Below, piece by piece: positions 28,200 through 43,836 of a stretch of DNA of 64,000 nt. The notes under the pieces were generated by a model. It did no database searches. It was not told where the DNA came from and saw only the letters and a list, made by a program, of their open reading frames with translations. Source of the DNA: Alphaproteobacteria bacterium. Lineage in GTDB: Bacteria; Pseudomonadota; Alphaproteobacteria; SP197. The position numbers and the translations under genes are program-made. The stretch is from NCBI GenBank assembly GCA_965228895.1, contig OZ245842.1:5216001-5280000 (forward strand), read 5' to 3'. Within the stretch, counting starts at the first letter, position 1. Every line of letters begins with the position of its first letter.

Positions 28200-28274
28200 G
28201 CCGAAGTAGCTCAGTGGTAGAGCAACTGATTCGTAATCAGTAGGTCGGGAGTTCGAATCTCCCCTTCGGCACCA
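28200..28274 (+). tRNA. tRNA-Thr (CGT)
   Basis: 75-nt cloverleaf: acceptor GCCGAAG/CTTCGGC, D arm GCTC/GAGC, anticodon arm ACTGA-TTCGTAA-TCAGT, T arm GGGAG-TTCGAAT-CTCCC, encoded CCA. Confidence 0.98.
28226..28274 (+). repeat. attL (49-bp tRNA 3' portion)
   Basis: CTGATTCGTAATCAGTAGGTCGGGAGTTCGAATCTCCCCTTCGGCACCA is identical to 43788-43836. Confidence 0.97.
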
Positions 28275-28341
28275 TTTTTTCGTGATAAATCAATGAGATA
28301 TAGACACGCCTCGGTTGGCGCAAAGTCCCTGATCGCCTAGT

Positions 28342-28360
28342 GGGTAACGTTCTGGGTAAC
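28342..28360 (+). promoter_or_regulatory. Putative integrase arm-type sites (left)
   Basis: GGGTAAC x2 (28342-48, 28354-60). The same tandem pair lies near attR at 43653-43670. Confidence 0.65.
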
Positions 28361-28467
28361 ATGAGAAGAAATCGTGGTAAGCGACTGGTCTGGCGCGTCG
28401 AGTGTCAGCTCGCTGGCGAGAATGGAGTAGCCCGTCAGAGATTCACGAGTCGAATCATCGACTTACG

Positions 28468-28480
28468 TAAGTTGTTGATT
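28468..28480 (-). promoter_or_regulatory. IHF consensus site near attL
   Basis: Minus strand AATCAACAACTTA fits WATCAANNNNTTR exactly. Confidence 0.5.
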
Positions 28481-28497
28481 CCGCTCAGAGAATCCGT

Positions 28498-29067
28498 ATG
28501 ATTCTAGGCGCAATGAGCATGGCTAATCAAAATCGCCCGAGGTATATGCCCAACACCAGCAAGGCGTTGGAAGTCATCCTGTGGTTGGGCACACGCCAAC
28601 GCGGTATCGATGTATATCACCTCGTCAAAGCAGCCTTCTTTGCCGATAAGTCCCACATCACTGAGTATGGTCGGCCCATCATTGGGGACGACTACGAGGC
28701 CAAGACGTATGGGCCGCTGCCTCGCGTGATCTATGGGTTGCTGAAACACGATCTGCTGGAGATCCAGGCGGCGGGCACGAACGGCAAGCTTCCGTTCGAA
28801 ATCAAGGACGCGTACTGCGTTTACCCTGACCGTCCACCTAACCTCAGAAGGCTCTCGCAGAGCGATGTCGAGGCGCTGGAGTACGGCTACGACATCGTGA
28901 AGGACAAGTCTTTCGACGAACTGGTTGAGCTAACCCACGACGACCCTGCCTATATCAATGCCGATGGCGGAATGATGGATTATCGAGACTTCATCCCGTC
29001 AGACGACCCCGAACGCGATGAAAAAGCTCAGGACATTCTAGAGGTCGCTAGATACGCAGTAGTATAA
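28498..29067 (+). CDS. Panacea/SocA (DUF4065) antitoxin-like protein
   Basis: LVKAAFFADKSH..EYGRPIIGDDYEAKTYGPLP...L.ELTH pattern. Start could be a downstream in-frame ATG (MSMANQ). Confidence 0.8.
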   Translation: MILGAMSMANQNRPRYMPNTSKALEVILWLGTRQRGIDVYHLVKAAFFADKSHITEYGRPIIGDDYEAKTYGPLPRVIYGLLKHDLLEIQAAGTNGKLPFEIKDAYCVYPDRPPNLRRLSQSDVEALEYGYDIVKDKSFDELVELTHDDPAYINADGGMMDYRDFIPSDDPERDEKAQDILEVARYAVV

Positions 29068-29071
29068 GGCC

Positions 29072-29422
29072 ATGTTTGCGCCTGGCGATGTGGTGTTGGT
29101 TTGGGACGCGTTCGTCCGACCACCCAAAGAGAAGCTGCATATTTGCATCTCTAACGAGAAGCAGCTGTTTCTGCGGATCAATAGCGCGCCTAGATACAAG
29201 CCTCATTTGAAGCTCGACGGATCATCAGACTTTCTCCGCCACGATAGCTACGTCGAGCTTACTCAGCTCGTCCGTCTTCGGCGATATGACATTGACAACG
29301 CTCGAACCTTAGGGCGCGTTTCGAAGCGCCAGGCCGCCGAGATTGTTGCGGCCGCGCAGTCGGCCAAGACACTGACAGCAGACCATGCGGACTTCATCGA
29401 AGAGTGCCTGCGGAGCGTGTAG
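29072..29422 (+). CDS. PemK/MazF-like putative toxin
   Basis: PGDVVLV...PPKEK..ICI...FLRHDSYV....L.......LGRV layout, 116 aa, 4 bp downstream of the Panacea gene. Confidence 0.5.
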   Translation: MFAPGDVVLVWDAFVRPPKEKLHICISNEKQLFLRINSAPRYKPHLKLDGSSDFLRHDSYVELTQLVRLRRYDIDNARTLGRVSKRQAAEIVAAAQSAKTLTADHADFIEECLRSV

Positions 29423-29645
29423 ATCCGCCAGCTACTTCACCGTTGGAAAATCCGTCTCGTTTTCTAATGGACAGCCGCCGATGATCAGCGCAGCATCATA
29501 AAGCGGAGCCCCACAGGTGCGCGAACACCCGTGAGGCCCCTGACCACAACGACCTACTGCACAGGTGCGTCATGGCTGCAAAACCACATACCACAATAGA
29601 GAACTGTTGCACGCCTCCAGTGGGTCTCAACCACGGGAGAAAACA

Positions 29646-41416: not shown

Positions 41417-41419
41417 GGA

Positions 41420-41620
41420 TCATGCTGCCTCGTCGCCGTCGCGTTCAGCGATACGGTCGGCGATCCACCGATCAACCTCGTCTTCGACAAAGCCGATCTT
41501 CGTTGGACTTAAGACAACTGGCTTGGGGAAGCGGCCTTGACGGACCAAGCGCATAATCGATTCCGGATGGTACCCACCCGAACGCTTCGCCGCTTCCTTC
41601 TTGGTTATGATGCACGACAT
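41420..41620 (-). CDS. alpA: AlpA family regulator / excisionase
   Basis: 66 aa; GRFPKPVVLS...GFVEDEVDRWI signature; GGAG RBS. Confidence 0.9.
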   Translation of the reverse strand: MSCIITKKEAAKRSGGYHPESIMRLVRQGRFPKPVVLSPTKIGFVEDEVDRWIADRIAERDGDEAA

Positions 41621-41718
41621 TGTTGAGGTATCTCCCAACAGGTTGAGGGAGACATCCAATTAGCGCCGTAGTCGGGCTCTGTCGTCGAGCTACCCCGGCA
41701 AGTTTTGCAGGGGGTTAA

Positions 41719-42393
41719 TCACGCGTTGTGTCTGCGCTGGTAGCGGTTGGCGATTTCATTGATCTGGTCTGAAATCTCTTGGCGACGTTCGGCAATCTGC
41801 TCCTCGCTGAACTTAGCCCGGATCTCTGGCAACAACAGTTGCGCTAGTTCACGGTTCAGGGGTGTGACTTGCTCAAAGTAGGACCAGTTGCGATCCGAGG
41901 TCTCAGTGCTCTGGTCGATATCCGTCTTTCCGACGGTGTCCTGAACGTGAAACGCTAACTCATCGTAGGCTCGCTTGCGGTCGTCGCCGCGGTAGTGGTC
42001 AACAACCACCTGGTAGCATGTGCGAGCAAGCTGGCTATCGGGTTCATTGAAGTTGAGCCGGAAGGTGTTGCGGGCGACGTTCTCTTTCGGCCACCGGCTC
42101 TCCAGGTCCGCTAGAATCTCTAAGGCGTGTCCAACGGCATAGGCTGCATCGGCGACCGGGTCGTGGATCTGATGAGTGAACCGCACGTTCCTACCGACTT
42201 CTGACAGTTTCGTTTGCGCTTTGGTAAGGCGCTTTCGCTCAGCTGCGAGATCACTGCGAATCTCACTCAGGCGTGGTGAACCCCCATCTGCCGATGACAC
42301 CTCTCGATACATGGCGACAGTCAGTTCGATTGATTTTCGGAACTCCGAAACATCGGCAGGCCCAAAGAGGTCGATAAGCTCGTCAACTGTCAT
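41719..42393 (-). CDS. Hypothetical protein downstream of integrase (224 aa)
   Basis: ATGA overlap with the integrase stop. Confidence 0.7.
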   Translation of the reverse strand: MTVDELIDLFGPADVSEFRKSIELTVAMYREVSSADGGSPRLSEIRSDLAAERKRLTKAQTKLSEVGRNVRFTHQIHDPVADAAYAVGHALEILADLESRWPKENVARNTFRLNFNEPDSQLARTCYQVVVDHYRGDDRKRAYDELAFHVQDTVGKTDIDQSTETSDRNWSYFEQVTPLNRELAQLLLPEIRAKFSEEQIAERRQEISDQINEIANRYQRRHNA

Positions 42394-43628
42394 GCCAGCA
42401 CGCTGACACCATCGCCGACAACGACACCTTCGACATGACCGGCCCAGCGTTCTATCCACTGGCGCTTGAGGTCCAAGCTGTAGCCATGGCTGTATGCGTC
42501 GGTCACGGAACCGGAACCGGCGTGGTTGAGAACAAGTCCGCGCTCGTACTCGGATGCGCCCTCGTTCTGCATCCAGGTGGTGATGGTGCGACGATGGTTG
42601 TGGGGTATCCAGTCCTCAACGCCACTAGCCTTCCGCACCTTGCGCATGAGGGGCGAGCTCGGGTGGATGGGCTTTTTCTTGTGGCGTCCGGGAAACACCA
42701 GTGGTTCGTCGCTATCCTTTTTGCGTAGGGTCTTGAGGACGCGTGCCGCAAGGGGAGGGATAGGGACGAGGTAGACGCGCTCTTTTGCTGTCAGCTTGGA
42801 CTTGGTGCGCTCGAAGGGGATGGTCCAAAGCGTAGGCTTGTCGGGGTCGTCCAGTTCATCCCAGCGCATGCCAGCGAGTTCTAGGCGACGCACACCTAGC
42901 AACGTCACCAGCTTCACGAACCCGCGCTCTTGGGCGTTGAGATCCTCTTGTGCTGTCCACAGCCGCTTGATCTCATCGTCGTCATAGACACGTTCCCGCG
43001 CCTTTTTGGGGATGGCGGGCCGCACGCTGTCCATGATGGGCGCATCGACGATTTCCCGCTCGTAGGCGTACCGCCAGAGCGTCCTGAGCCACGAAAGGGT
43101 GACGCGGGCCTTGCTGGCCTTCTCCTCGTCTATGTAGCCCTCGATCAGCTTGAAGGCGTCGCGCCGGGTGATGGAGTTCATGGGTTTGTCGCCCCACGGG
43201 ACCGTCTCCAGGATCCTCTGCGTCTCTTCCCAGGTTCGCTGACGACGCTTGGCGTGTTTCTCGATGAACTCCTCGACCACAGCCTCGTAGGTATTGCTGC
43301 GCGCTTCAGCGGCGGCCTCTCGTTCGCGTTTGACAGCGTCGCGAGGGTCTAGGCCCTGCTCGGCCTCCCTGGCGAACCCACGGGCCTTCTCGCGGGCCTC
43401 TGCGATCCCGATGGAGGGATAGGACCCAAAGGTCATCTTGTGCTGCCTGCCGTCGAGCCTGAAGAAGTAGACCCAGGATGTCTTGCGCGTGCCGATGCGA
43501 GCACATAACCCCTTCTCAACCTCGTCGAACTTATCAACGCGTCCGGTCTTCGGACGCTTGGCCTCCAGTATCTTCTGGGTCAGGACATAGCTCTTGGGCG
43601 CCTTGCGTTCGCTTTTCTGATTGCCCAT
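42390..43628 (-). CDS. int: Tyrosine recombinase/integrase with N-terminal arm-binding domain
   Basis: GLCARIG..SWVYFFR.DG....TFGSYP.IGIAEAR arm domain; catalytic R (GVRRLE), K (RTK), H-x-x-R (HNHRRT), H (LNH), Y (DAY). Adjacent to attR. Confidence 0.96.
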   Translation of the reverse strand: MGNQKSERKAPKSYVLTQKILEAKRPKTGRVDKFDEVEKGLCARIGTRKTSWVYFFRLDGRQHKMTFGSYPSIGIAEAREKARGFAREAEQGLDPRDAVKREREAAAEARSNTYEAVVEEFIEKHAKRRQRTWEETQRILETVPWGDKPMNSITRRDAFKLIEGYIDEEKASKARVTLSWLRTLWRYAYEREIVDAPIMDSVRPAIPKKARERVYDDDEIKRLWTAQEDLNAQERGFVKLVTLLGVRRLELAGMRWDELDDPDKPTLWTIPFERTKSKLTAKERVYLVPIPPLAARVLKTLRKKDSDEPLVFPGRHKKKPIHPSSPLMRKVRKASGVEDWIPHNHRRTITTWMQNEGASEYERGLVLNHAGSGSVTDAYSHGYSLDLKRQWIERWAGHVEGVVVGDGVSVLA

Positions 43629-43652
43629 CAGTCGCTCACCAAAATCGTGAAT

Positions 43653-43670
43653 GGGTAACAAACGGGTAAC
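43653..43670 (+). promoter_or_regulatory. Putative integrase arm-type sites (right)
   Basis: GGGTAAC x2 (43653-59, 43664-70) between the int start and attR. Confidence 0.65.
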
Positions 43671-43787
43671 AGAATGGTGGTGTAGGCCCGTTTTCGTATG
43701 CTGAGCTATGTTGATATAGGCAGTTGAAAAAGCAAGGTAATCTGGTGATGAGGCTGAGTTGGGTTGAGAATTGTTGAGGGCAAAAAG

Positions 43788-43836
43788 CTGATTCGTAATC
43801 AGTAGGTCGGGAGTTCGAATCTCCCCTTCGGCACCA
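43788..43836 (+). repeat. attR (49-bp duplicate of tRNA-Thr 3' part)
   Basis: Identical to 28226-28274. Confidence 0.97.

Follow-up and report, generated by a model that had tools for sequence, protein, structure and literature searches.

A marine alphaproteobacterium carries, at a tRNA-Thr gene, a mobile element of 15,562 bp (15.6 kb) flanked by perfect 49-bp repeats, and we infer that it is probably a helper-dependent satellite of a 43.3-kb prophage in the same genome, one that would redirect the helper's capsid size while supplying its own ejection proteins and tail fibre. Element positions are those of the window, the whole 64-kb stretch of DNA that was analysed. The ends are as follows:

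28200..28274, +, tRNA-Thr(CGT) (Rfam tRNA, 79.2 bits), with the att core (attL) as its final 49 nt, 28226-28274
43788..43836, +, attR, the second copy of the 49-nt core

The two core copies are 100% identical and lie 15,562 nt apart; together with the Pfam matches of the integrase, this confirms the initial annotation, which had reported perfect repeats and an intact integrase. ARAGORN calls an additional 'tRNA-Thr' at 43763-43836, where Rfam gives no tRNA and its sole match is a weak one, to the tmRNA model (E = 0.0055), so we read this stretch as a displaced tRNA 3′ half. The element excises through the core: in a public run from the same organism (X2), a 1,767-nt contig comprises 42121-43787 followed by 28226-28325, and the 49 nt are compatible with either side. 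This join of 43787 to 28226 represents attP, as carried by a circle or concatemer; it was found in a single contig of a single run and is a positive outcome for the attP check that had been proposed.

For integration, excision and replication the element carries a module of its own:

42390..43628, −, tyrosine integrase, 412 aa (Pfam Arm-DNA-bind_3, 1.3e-14; Phage_integrase, 2.2e-12)
41719..42396, −, 225-aa protein between int and alpA, without a detected relative
41420..41659, −, AlpA-family excisionase/regulator (Pfam, 3.7e-7; phrog_66, 2e-9)
40206..41231, −, fusion of a ParB-like N-terminal domain and a Dam-type N6-adenine methyltransferase (Pfam, PHROG)
39709..40209, −, 166-aa protein with no family match
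38648..39712, −, AAA_25 (RepA/DnaB-like) replicative helicase (Pfam, 1.9e-34; PHROG primase/helicase families)
38343..38453, unstranded, iteron cluster CCGGACA/TGTCCGG, candidate replication origin directly downstream of the helicase gene

Pfam and PHROG thus bear out the minus-strand run of int, alpA, ParB/methylase and helicase genes first read from the open reading frames, with the origin a candidate iteron cluster: 8 of the 16 iteron matches in the window fall within these 111 nt. In the fusion protein, the Dam domain is matched at 1.1e-16, ParB_N reaches 22.4 bits, under the cut-off, and PHROG ParB families match down to 1.8e-26. The 166-aa protein matched nothing in Pfam, PHROGs, PADLOC or NCBIfam; the 225-aa protein found itself alone among 5.8 billion proteins and had no match in the Atlas.

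The same genome holds an intact-looking short-tailed prophage of 43,338 bp at tRNA-Glu(TTC), bounded by perfect 46-nt repeats (2573535 / 2616873). It answers the suggestion of the initial annotation to look for a resident podophage whose ejection and scaffold genes are homologous to those of the element. It encodes a major head protein (phrog_1357, E = 2.4e-36), TerL (phrog_2, 4.9e-35; phrog_31467, 4.2e-48), a 626-aa portal-position protein, a scaffold, three tail-hub-position proteins, three ejection-position genes and a fibre, and none of its ORFs matches tape-measure, tube or sheath families. Four of its 77 ORFs have a homologue in the element (E ≤ 1e-3), namely the scaffold, two ejection proteins and the fibre; in the reverse search, 5 of 21 element proteins had a second match at the prophage (the 439-aa, 677-aa and 205-aa proteins, the fibre and the mini-scaffold). 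The corresponding part of the element reads:

35017..36228, −, second ejection protein, 403 aa, all-helical (phrog_13634), homologue of the prophage 462-aa protein
32984..35017, −, large ejection (injection) protein, 677 aa, its C-terminal segment hydrophobic (phrog_36512)
32454..32987, −, 177-aa coiled-coil protein, with weak coiled-coil-type matches alone
32282..32497, −, mini-scaffold, 71 aa from TTG or 63 aa from ATG at 32473, with the scaffold C-terminal motif
31678..32295, −, scaffold paralogue, 205 aa, 43.7% identical over 87 aa to the 198-aa prophage scaffold
30641..31663, −, tail fibre, 340 aa, with an N-terminal tail-attachment module and a C-terminal lectin-like beta-sandwich

The 677-aa protein is 47.6% identical over 657 aa to a 670-aa prophage protein and 27-30% identical to the Pan3 'ejection protein' and the RHph_Y1_10 'putative injection protein', which occupy the same gene position. 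Of the four known members of its family it diverges most, at 48.9-49.5% identity to each of the other three; the prophage copy and one from a metagenome share 84.3% identity. The prophage 462-aa homologue of the 403-aa protein lies directly upstream of the 670-aa one, and alignment with it places the most likely start of the 439-aa ORF at 36228, for a product of 403 aa. Both prophage homologues occupy ejection-protein positions, in line with the ejection role assigned earlier to the two large helical proteins; for a third prophage protein in such a position (253 aa), the element lacks a counterpart. The fibre, likewise annotated from the start as fibre-like, is 81% identical to the prophage fibre (92% over the N-terminal 160 aa, 72% in the C-terminal part), and its predicted fold (AF2 pLDDT 83) has tailspike N-termini, T4 gp9 and lectins as best Foldseek matches. 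Its N-terminal domain is conserved in 36-42 kb phage contigs, at the end of the structural module. Judged by a dN/dS of 0.15 at a dS of 0.95 for the pair, the fibre is under purifying selection.

The suspected scaffold-like pair also stood up: the 205-aa protein shares only its C-terminal third with the prophage scaffold, the mini-scaffold matches its last 25 aa (52% identity, E = 2.8e-4), and both end in its C-terminal motif, with a W-K-x-x-x-G-G-[FW] end. A prophage homologue of the 177-aa coiled-coil protein was searched for and none was found. The gene order differs from that of the prophage: in the element, the scaffold genes are flanked by the ejection genes on one side and by the fibre on the other. 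A deletion derivative of the 43.3-kb prophage is ruled out by the unrelated backbones, the rearranged order and ejection proteins that are ~49% identical. The ejection-protein divergence, the fibre dN/dS and the gene order point instead to long independent evolution under selection.

None of the 21 element ORFs matches major head, portal or large terminase families in Pfam or PHROG, and no tail-hub gene is detectable in the element. The absence of capsid, portal and TerL described in the initial annotation therefore stands for these searches and for the two folded proteins, the fibre and the 403-aa protein (AF2 pLDDT 89, without a PDB relative), neither of which has an HK97, portal or terminase fold. 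By homology, the element's sole phage-like morphogenetic genes are diverged, intact copies of the scaffold, two ejection proteins and the fibre. We regard it as very improbable that the element is instead an autonomous small virus with capsid, portal and packaging genes diverged beyond recognition: 14 of the 21 ORFs lack a Pfam match and the 225-aa and 166-aa proteins are without relatives or matches, but every ORF of at least 300 aa is assigned (integrase, methylase, helicase, two ejection proteins, fibre), the other unknown ORFs are at most 246 aa, and the three virion proteins of at least 300 aa have homologues in a prophage with a canonical capsid and TerL.

A further feature is shared with the prophage; it is listed here with the remaining genes:

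37998..38059, −, 64-nt non-coding motif also present in the prophage, a candidate for a packaging site or for a late promoter activated by the helper
37025..37897, −, composite 'terS-like' ORF, 290 aa, three coding stretches in two frames with a frame-specific GC3 switch
36219..37053, −, three small ORFs of 100, 83 and 113 aa
28498..29067, +, SocA/Panacea-domain antitoxin-like protein, 189 aa, accessory cargo (Pfam PF13274, E = 1.2e-15)
29072..29422, +, 116-aa protein, putative toxin partner by position alone, 5 nt downstream of the antitoxin-like gene
29565..30065, +, 166-aa ORF, accessory gene, with a twin-arginine-like signal after an internal Met

The motif is 79.7% identical between the two elements over 64 nt (E = 6.9e-7) and in both adjoins a terS-type gene in non-coding DNA; its 30-nt core occurs at two sites in the 5.53-Mb genome, those two only, with 0 matches for the reversed control. 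The size ratio is 15,562 / 43,338 = 0.359, and known satellites are described as 'about one-third' of helper size (PMC9618062). In X2, contig depths are 0.8-3.3 for flanking chromosome bins, 5.3-11.8 for the element and 6.2 and 9.2 for the prophage, and in X1 they are 8.9-11.7, 14.2-18.4 and 12.2-16.7, respectively; these are one figure per contig, not copy numbers, and give a weak hint. Prophage contigs were recognised by 26/26 variant bases.

The 'terS-like' gene stood in part. Weak likeness to a terS N-terminal domain is confined to the first 85 aa of the 290-aa ORF (Terminase_2, E = 3.3e-4, under the cut-off; phrog_51, E = 5e-3), but the single ORF is a composite of this HTH stretch (37643-37897, 85 aa), a 106-aa ORF in the other frame (37318-37638) and a 95-aa ORF (37025-37312), and this frame-switching ORF may be broken. 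Weak paralogy links the 83-aa, 113-aa and 95-aa ORFs. Similarly, the proposed toxin–antitoxin cargo keeps its antitoxin half, whereas the toxin half has no family match in Pfam, PHROGs, PADLOC or NCBIfam. The accessory 166-aa ORF shares 33% identity, over 87 aa, with an ORF of another element (G198, L020).

The element could also be what is left of an old phage from the same broad lineage, a reduced form that still integrates, excises and perhaps replicates yet is packaged by no helper, its virion genes leftover or repurposed; we consider this unlikely, although it is the strongest rival. Related AAA_25 helicases stand beside terS and TerL of the prophage's TerL family in G110 (L019; TerL 42-43% identical) and in 2 of 80 viral contigs (L049 and L059), so the backbone may derive from a gene-losing phage; the terS-like region appears disrupted. 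The independent syntenic elements that the initial annotation had suggested searching for did not turn up in pattern scans of genome, viral and metagenome collections, which also fits a relic. None of the 80 viral contigs with a related helicase carries ejection, scaffold or fibre homologues, and 32 other genomes of the host family gave 0 matches to the 677-aa protein. Fibre-bearing loci elsewhere are full phages at 4 of 6 viral and 5 of 7 genome loci, which is every informative locus; in the DNA examined at L026, L029 and the short contigs L033 and L036 there is no helper-like head or tail-hub gene. Against a relic, every retained virion ORF is intact at ~50% divergence and the fibre is constrained; the retained set is non-random, made up of the fibre, the ejection proteins and the end of the scaffold, and it comes with an additional mini-scaffold, the 64-nt motif in common with the resident phage and the one-third size ratio; and the order is rearranged, not merely deleted.

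Scaffold-end mimics could, in addition, stop normal capsid assembly, and known satellites interfere with their own helpers (PMC6893505). The element might then be an anti-phage interference island with no need of its own transduction, its scaffold, ejection and fibre copies acting as poison subunits against the resident or related phages, and the Panacea-domain antitoxin-like gene on board would suit it. We think this quite improbable: nine proteins scanned against PADLOC defence families gave the methylase and coiled-coil noise only, and the reading leaves the one-third size, the shared non-coding motif and purifying selection on a full receptor-binding fibre unexplained. As interference and satellite transfer usually coincide, it is more a sub-function than a true alternative.

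The satellite of a podophage-type helper proposed in the initial annotation is partly supported: it gains from a resident prophage having the missing capsid, portal-position protein and TerL, and loses from the want of a syntenic copy and the weak terS. Upon helper induction, AlpA and the integrase would excise the element, and the AAA_25 helicase would replicate it from the iteron origin. The 64-nt motif would link it to the helper as a packaging recognition site or helper-activated late promoter. The 205-aa paralogue and the mini-scaffold, bearing the scaffold's presumed capsid-binding end, may compete with the helper scaffold, as CpmB does with that of 80alpha, yielding from the helper capsid protein a smaller shell that fits a genome 0.36 times the helper's. 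The element's two ejection proteins would be loaded into these small shells, helper terminase would fill them, the helper tail hub would be added, and the satellite fibre would dock on that hub through its N-terminal attachment part, 92% identical to the helper's.

SaPI1 CpmB (72 aa) shares a C-terminal helix-and-hook with the 206-aa 80alpha scaffold, and the two are described as contesting the same capsid site (PMC5644958). The mini-scaffold is likewise a short protein that has only the C-terminal end in common with a scaffold, the full scaffolds are both of ~200 aa, and the satellite/helper genome ratio is ~one third in each case. There is no sequence relationship to CpmB, and the motifs differ, with a RIIK hook in 80alpha (PMC5644958) in place of the W-K-x-x-x-G-G-[FW] end. 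Unlike SaPI1, the element adds a full-length scaffold paralogue and has a short-tailed helper, and its capsid binding and size redirection are proposed by analogy.

Gram-negative PICIs resemble the element in size (~15 kb), att repeats, a tyrosine integrase at one end and far-end accessory cargo, and in gene order, with alpA following int in the same orientation and, after it, a replication gene, origin and terS-type gene. The element departs from them in encoding a tail fibre, a pair of ejection proteins and a scaffold paralogue of full length, and no primase domain was found in it. With P4, whose helper is P2, it shares an integrative replicon and AlpA-type control, and would share the redirection of a helper capsid to a smaller size. 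The P4 genome is 11.6 kb and its external scaffold is Sid; to our knowledge, P4 encodes no ejection or fibre proteins. No ORF of the element matches P4 core families in Pfam or PHROG. P2 itself is a T=7 phage of 33 kbp (PMC6893505).

The marine VEIMEs and PICMIs are also satellites with an integrase, AlpA, a primase/helicase and sometimes terS, and VEIMEs include elements integrated in Alphaproteobacteria (PMC9618062). They are described as lacking structural genes and as packaged as concatemers in full-size helper capsids (PMC9618062; PMC10803314), unlike this element, which has structural genes and one-third of the helper's size. Parts of the satellite literature treat tail genes as excluded from satellites. 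In cf-PICIs, as here, the satellite encodes part of the virion and takes the rest from its helper; according to 10.1101/2022.09.08.507074 and PMC10085698, they make the whole head (capsid, portal, connectors and terminase) and steal tails alone. The element is the reverse, without head shell, portal or TerL and with ejection proteins and a fibre of its own.

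The two 49-nt copies that bound the 15,562-bp element (28226–28274 and 43788–43836) are identical and lie 15,562 nt apart, so its ends are preserved, as the initial annotation had claimed. The repeat is the 3′ end of a tRNA-Thr(CGT) gene (28200–28274; Rfam tRNA, 79.2 bits). A second tRNA-Thr, called by ARAGORN at 43763–43836, drew no tRNA call from Rfam and contains tRNA sequence in its last 49 nt only; we read it as a displaced tRNA half, an att duplicate mis-called as a gene. G+C content is approximately 0.63–0.68 in the flanks and 0.55–0.62 inside the element, and the genes on either side are ordinary metabolic ones:

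26378–28147, TPP enzyme
44700–45908, MpaB-family protein

Within the element, a strong hairpin on the minus strand (29505–29540; 16-bp stem, 10 G–C pairs, weak T tail) is placed between the accessory plus-strand genes and the end of the minus-strand late block, and may be a bidirectional terminator.

Pfam and PHROG searches of the element's 21 ORFs matched a tyrosine integrase, an AlpA protein, a ParB-N/Dam methylase fusion, an AAA_25 helicase and a Panacea-domain antitoxin-like protein. The same searches returned no match to major head, portal or large terminase families, nor to the families of the P4 core genes (psu, delta, sid, epsilon and the alpha primase). Three larger ORFs, of 439, 677 and 340 aa, match only PHROGs of unknown function (phrog_13634, phrog_36512 and phrog_29482, respectively). 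PADLOC and NCBIfam searches of the element proteins added nothing, and the 225-aa ORF had no usable hit in the protein Atlas. Directly downstream of the helicase gene, 111 nt hold 8 of the 16 CCGGACA heptamers in the 64-kb window, a cluster that is a candidate origin of the iteron type.

A whole-genome tblastn search with the element's proteins led to a second locus with homologues, an intact-looking prophage of 43,338 bp between perfect 46-nt repeats at tRNA-Glu(TTC) (G000:C1:2573535–2616918, in the same genome). The check suggested in the initial annotation, for a co-resident podophage with homologous ejection and scaffold genes, thus turns out positive. One end of the prophage carries an integrase and an excisionase-like gene, and its late region reads, in order:

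HNH endonuclease
terS (phrog_51, 3.8e-7; phrog_1595, 1.4e-6)
several small genes and two glycosyltransferase-like genes
TerL (phrog_2, 4.9e-35)
626-aa protein at the portal position (phrog_332, connector category, 3e-6)
198-aa scaffold
major head protein (phrog_1357, 2.4e-36)
180-, 221-, 535- and 254-aa proteins at tail-hub positions
253-, 462- and 670-aa proteins
340-aa fibre

A methyltransferase is also found inside the late region, with a DUF6362/sigma-70-region-4-like protein upstream. Because no tape-measure, tube or sheath family matched in the prophage, we classify it by gene content as short-tailed. The same late gene order, with capsid proteins 38–65% identical, recurs in IMG/VR contigs of 36–42 kb and in phage-like MAG contigs.

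Homology between the element and the prophage is confined to a few late genes. At E ≤ 1e-3, 4 of the 77 prophage ORFs match the element: those for the scaffold, for the proteins of 462 and 670 aa, and for the fibre. One further match (27 residues, E 0.006) was taken as chance. By tblastn, the element's 677-aa protein is 47.6% identical to its prophage counterpart over 657 aa, the 439-aa ORF 50.5% over 184 aa plus 34% over 158 aa, the 340-aa protein 81.2% over its full length and the C-terminal 87 aa of the 205-aa protein 43.7%. The prophage capsid, portal-position, TerL and tail-hub proteins have no tblastn match in the element, which also holds no counterpart of the prophage terS or 253-aa protein; together with the Pfam and PHROG results on the 21 ORFs, this upholds the earlier statement that capsid, portal and TerL are lacking. 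The element integrase has one distant relative elsewhere in the genome, which is not the prophage integrase, and the gene order differs, the element's scaffold genes lying between the ejection genes and the fibre. Judged from these comparisons, the two backbones are unrelated.

At the DNA level, beyond the fibre and two patches in the ejection gene, similarity between the two is limited to one non-coding stretch of 64 nt (element 37998–38059, prophage 2598424–2598487; 79.7% identical, E 6.9e-7). Its 30-nt core occurs at just these two sites in the 5.53-Mb genome (0 matches for a reversed control), and a 21-nt shared core was not found in viral contigs. In the element the motif lies about 100 nt upstream of the terS-like gene, and in the prophage it lies inside a gene-poor gap of about 500 nt that follows the HNH endonuclease and terS. 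We propose it as a candidate packaging-recognition site or helper-activated late promoter. The ratio of the two sizes (15,562/43,338) is 0.359; the available text of a survey of marine elements puts known satellites at around one third of helper size (PMC9618062).

The 205-aa protein aligns with the prophage scaffold mainly over its last third. A mini-scaffold ORF directly upstream of the 205-aa gene (63 aa from ATG, 71 aa from TTG) has the same ending, K-x-F-D-D ... S-D-x-E-L-x-x-W-K-x-x-x-G-G-[FW], and is 52% identical to the prophage scaffold over the last 25 aa (E 2.8e-4); scaffolds of related phages show a looser form of it. From this shared ending, we infer that the 205-aa protein and the mini-scaffold are scaffold-end mimics and putative capsid binders. 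A comparable case, demonstrated by experiment, is SaPI1 CpmB, a protein of 72 aa for which the available text describes a C-terminal helix-and-hook in common with the 206-aa 80alpha scaffold, competition for the same capsid-protein site and an altered angle between capsomers (PMC5644958). The likeness lies in a short protein that carries the C-terminal ending of the helper's scaffold.

The next shared pair comprises the 677-aa protein and the product of the 439-aa ORF, which is 403 aa long once its start is re-set (35017–36228, minus strand). The 677-aa protein is 27–30% identical to proteins that their depositors named 'ejection protein' (Pseudanabaena phage Pan3) and 'putative injection protein' (Rhizobium phage RHph_Y1_10). 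In both phages these proteins come after the hub or needle genes, beside a second such protein of about 280–420 aa and before the spike or lysis genes, and the 403/677 pair of the element has the same arrangement. The prophage homologues likewise occupy the position of P22-type ejection genes, between tail hub and fibre. The AF2 model of the 403-aa protein is all-helical (pLDDT 89.2), and gave 0 Foldseek matches at E ≤ 1e-3 and only generic helical bundles in VIA-align (best Z 7.5); neither this protein, nor the 677-aa family, nor the 535-aa protein of the prophage has a PDB sequence match below E 0.05. Because there is no convincing PDB relative, the label 'ejection protein' is taken from synteny and the annotation of others, not from structure. 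A domain very common in phages forms the C terminus of the 403-aa protein (phrog_13634): of 1.84 billion cluster representatives, 10,230 belong to its family at E ≤ 1e-3, and the family is without functional annotation. The element's 677-aa copy is 48.9–49.5% identical to each of the three other known members and the prophage's 670-aa copy is 84.3% identical to a metagenome copy, so the former is not a recent duplicate of the resident prophage gene.

The 340-aa protein is modelled (pLDDT 83) as a helix, an N-terminal beta module and a C-terminal beta-sandwich. At E ≤ 1e-3 its PDB matches are 10 chains from six entries (three tailspikes, a Klebsiella phage baseplate, a capsid spike and T4 gp9), with lectins weaker than that threshold, and a BFVD search with the model led to tail-fibre proteins. 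The fold and the position of the prophage homologue rule out a hidden capsid. Related phages conserve its first approximately 150 residues, in a protein encoded where the structural module ends, and vary in the remainder; a conserved N terminus followed by a variable rest is how fibres are usually built. Among 901 hits, the element and prophage fibres are each other's closest relatives (81% identical; next 44%). With a dS of 0.95, a dN/dS of 0.15 and 92% identity in the attachment half against 72% in the distal half, both copies have been kept functional, and the tail-docking part is the best conserved.

Sequencing reads bear on whether the element still moves. Four coded public runs, X1 to X4, were compared over positions 26500–45500. 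In X2, another sample with the same organism label, a 1,767-nt contig (depth 10.8) passes from 42121–43787 to 28226–28325 with the 49-nt core fitting both sides, and is the attP junction of an excised circle or concatemer. Contig depths in X2 are 0.8–3.3 for the flanking chromosome, 5.3–11.8 for the element and 6.2 and 9.2 for the prophage, and in X1 they are 8.9–11.7, 14.2–18.4 and 12.2 and 16.7, respectively; the prophage contigs were identified by the variant bases in the fibre region, 26 of 26 of which are those of the prophage. Element and prophage thus exceed the flanking bins in both runs, most clearly in X2, although contig depth is a crude figure and this joint over-representation is therefore only a hint. 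The marine metagenome X3 holds a few identical 151-nt pieces of the element, and X4, which has the same species label, next to none of it. Two further joints were set aside: 33994 to 39285 ('skips 5290') as a chance match with 24-nt sides, and one in X1 that 'goes back 17330' as the neighbouring tRNA-Glu aligning to tRNA-Thr.

The element is probably a helper-dependent satellite of the resident short-tailed phage. Its scaffold-end mimics would redirect capsid size after excision, and its particles would carry ejection proteins and a fibre encoded by the element itself. The leading alternative, which we regard as unlikely, is a reduced relic of a phage, still able to excise but no longer packaged.

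The region next to the shared 64-nt motif is less simple than first described. The 290-aa terS-like ORF (37025–37897, minus strand) retains a likeness to the terS DNA-binding domain that is weak, covers the first 85 residues only and falls below the cut-off (Terminase_2, E 3.3e-4); third-position G+C by frame indicates that it is not one gene. Near 37650 the coding frame shifts to a 106-aa ORF (37318–37638), in which third-position G+C is 0.75–0.9 as that of the long frame falls to 0.35–0.45, and it then returns to a 95-aa ORF. A T5 run lies near the switch, at approximately 37645. The Logan contigs of X1 and X2 show no insertion or deletion in the ORF, and its terS-like part has no similarity to the prophage terS. 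The ORF may represent a disrupted terS, a pair of genes or a frameshift tolerated by read-through. Between the terS-like gene and the ejection genes, three small proteins encoded in succession (95, 113 and 83 aa; 36433–37312, minus strand) have a weak C-terminal motif in common, with pairwise E values of about 1e-4 in a tiny search space, and form a triplicated small domain.

Syntenic elements elsewhere, for which the initial annotation proposed a search, were absent from the genome, viral and metagenome collections searched, and the element is so far a singleton. No second element of this build emerged when the 677-aa family, the motif and the helicase were used as queries. Pattern scans for the 677-aa family across genome, viral and metagenome contigs, and a scan of viral contigs with the helicase alone, gave no confirmed relative, and 32 other genomes of the host family and order contain neither the 677-aa protein nor, at 1e-30, the helicase. 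The fibre N terminus has matches in 3 of 400 sampled Alphaproteobacteria. Elsewhere the fibre was found at 13 loci. Nine of these are full phages, with head or tail-hub genes like those of the helper; in the DNA available for the remaining four (L026, L029 and two short contigs) no such gene was seen. The layout of the element recurs at none of the 13. Full-length homologues of the fibre are also encoded on contigs of 10–18 kb. Helicases related to that of the element were detected in 11 of the 400 sampled Alphaproteobacteria and at 80 viral loci, none of the latter with homologues of the ejection, scaffold or fibre genes.

Two of the helicase relatives carry other subsets of virion genes. The first (L020; G198:C3:322001–342000, about 6391–17790) is an element of approximately 11–12 kb beside tRNA-Ser, in which integrase, AlpA-like, primase and AAA_25 helicase genes (the helicase 46% identical to that described here) precede those for a major-head-like protein of 353 aa (phrog_617, 1.7e-19), a tape-measure protein of 663 aa and a 319-aa protein with 38% identity to the fibre over 85 aa; it also has a homologue of the element's 166-aa plus-strand ORF. 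No portal or TerL was seen in it, nor a second copy of its capsid-like and tape-measure genes in the G198 genome, and it may represent a further satellite that carries part of a set of virion genes. The second (L019; G110:C1:3325001–3345000, about 6086–16870) spans about 11 kb near tRNA-Lys and has an integrase, an AAA_25 helicase (50% identical), a terS-like gene, a TerL 42–43% identical to that of the prophage and read in two frames, and a 961-aa protein without assigned function; no capsid gene was seen. The capsid-like, tape-measure and fibre-like genes in G198 and the terS and TerL in G110 hint at a wider 'pick-and-mix' set of satellites in Alphaproteobacteria.

If confirmed, the element would break the field's working rule that satellites carry no tail or entry genes, and, because this rule is built into detection tools, would reveal a blind spot in detection. 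Helper and satellite would also form a natural pair within a single marine alphaproteobacterium that is in culture and fully sequenced, so that redirection of capsid size in a short-tailed phage could be tested directly, and a satellite-encoded fibre would allow the satellite's host range to evolve apart from that of the helper. A further question is the reason for which a satellite has to supply ejection proteins itself. The scaffold of P22-type phages is said to bring such proteins into the procapsid, so a satellite that swaps the scaffold may need to swap the cargo too.

Set against described satellites, the element has the tyrosine integrase, flanking att repeats and size (15,562 bp, within approximately 10–18 kb) of a PICI of the Gram-negative type, with alpA downstream of int in the same orientation (Phage_AlpA, 3.7e-7; 41420–41659, minus strand like int). 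Its replication module combines the AAA_25 helicase (1.9e-34) with the iteron cluster, and no primase domain was found in any of its ORFs by Pfam or PHROG. It departs from PICIs in its tail fibre and two ejection-protein homologues; according to the available text on SatelliteFinder, that tool treats tail and virion structural genes as 'forbidden' components (PMC10085698). Full-text literature searches turned up no satellite equipped with ejection proteins or a tail fibre of its own, though supplementary tables may list exceptions; this agrees with the first impression that the combination is not known from described families. The term 'tail fiber' does not occur in the available text of the marine VEIME paper, which reports no major capsid structural genes (PMC9618062). 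cf-PICIs encode their own major capsid, portal, head–tail connectors and TerL, and the element does not have this set. We tentatively suggest, with somewhat more doubt than conviction, that it is the first member of a class which, if real, is systematically missed because current satellite finders reject elements with tail genes, and which would be the reverse of the cf-PICIs: it would borrow the helper's shell, portal, terminase and tail hub and swap in its own scaffold, ejection proteins and receptor-binding fibre, and so govern both how large its capsids are and the entire machinery by which its particles enter cells.
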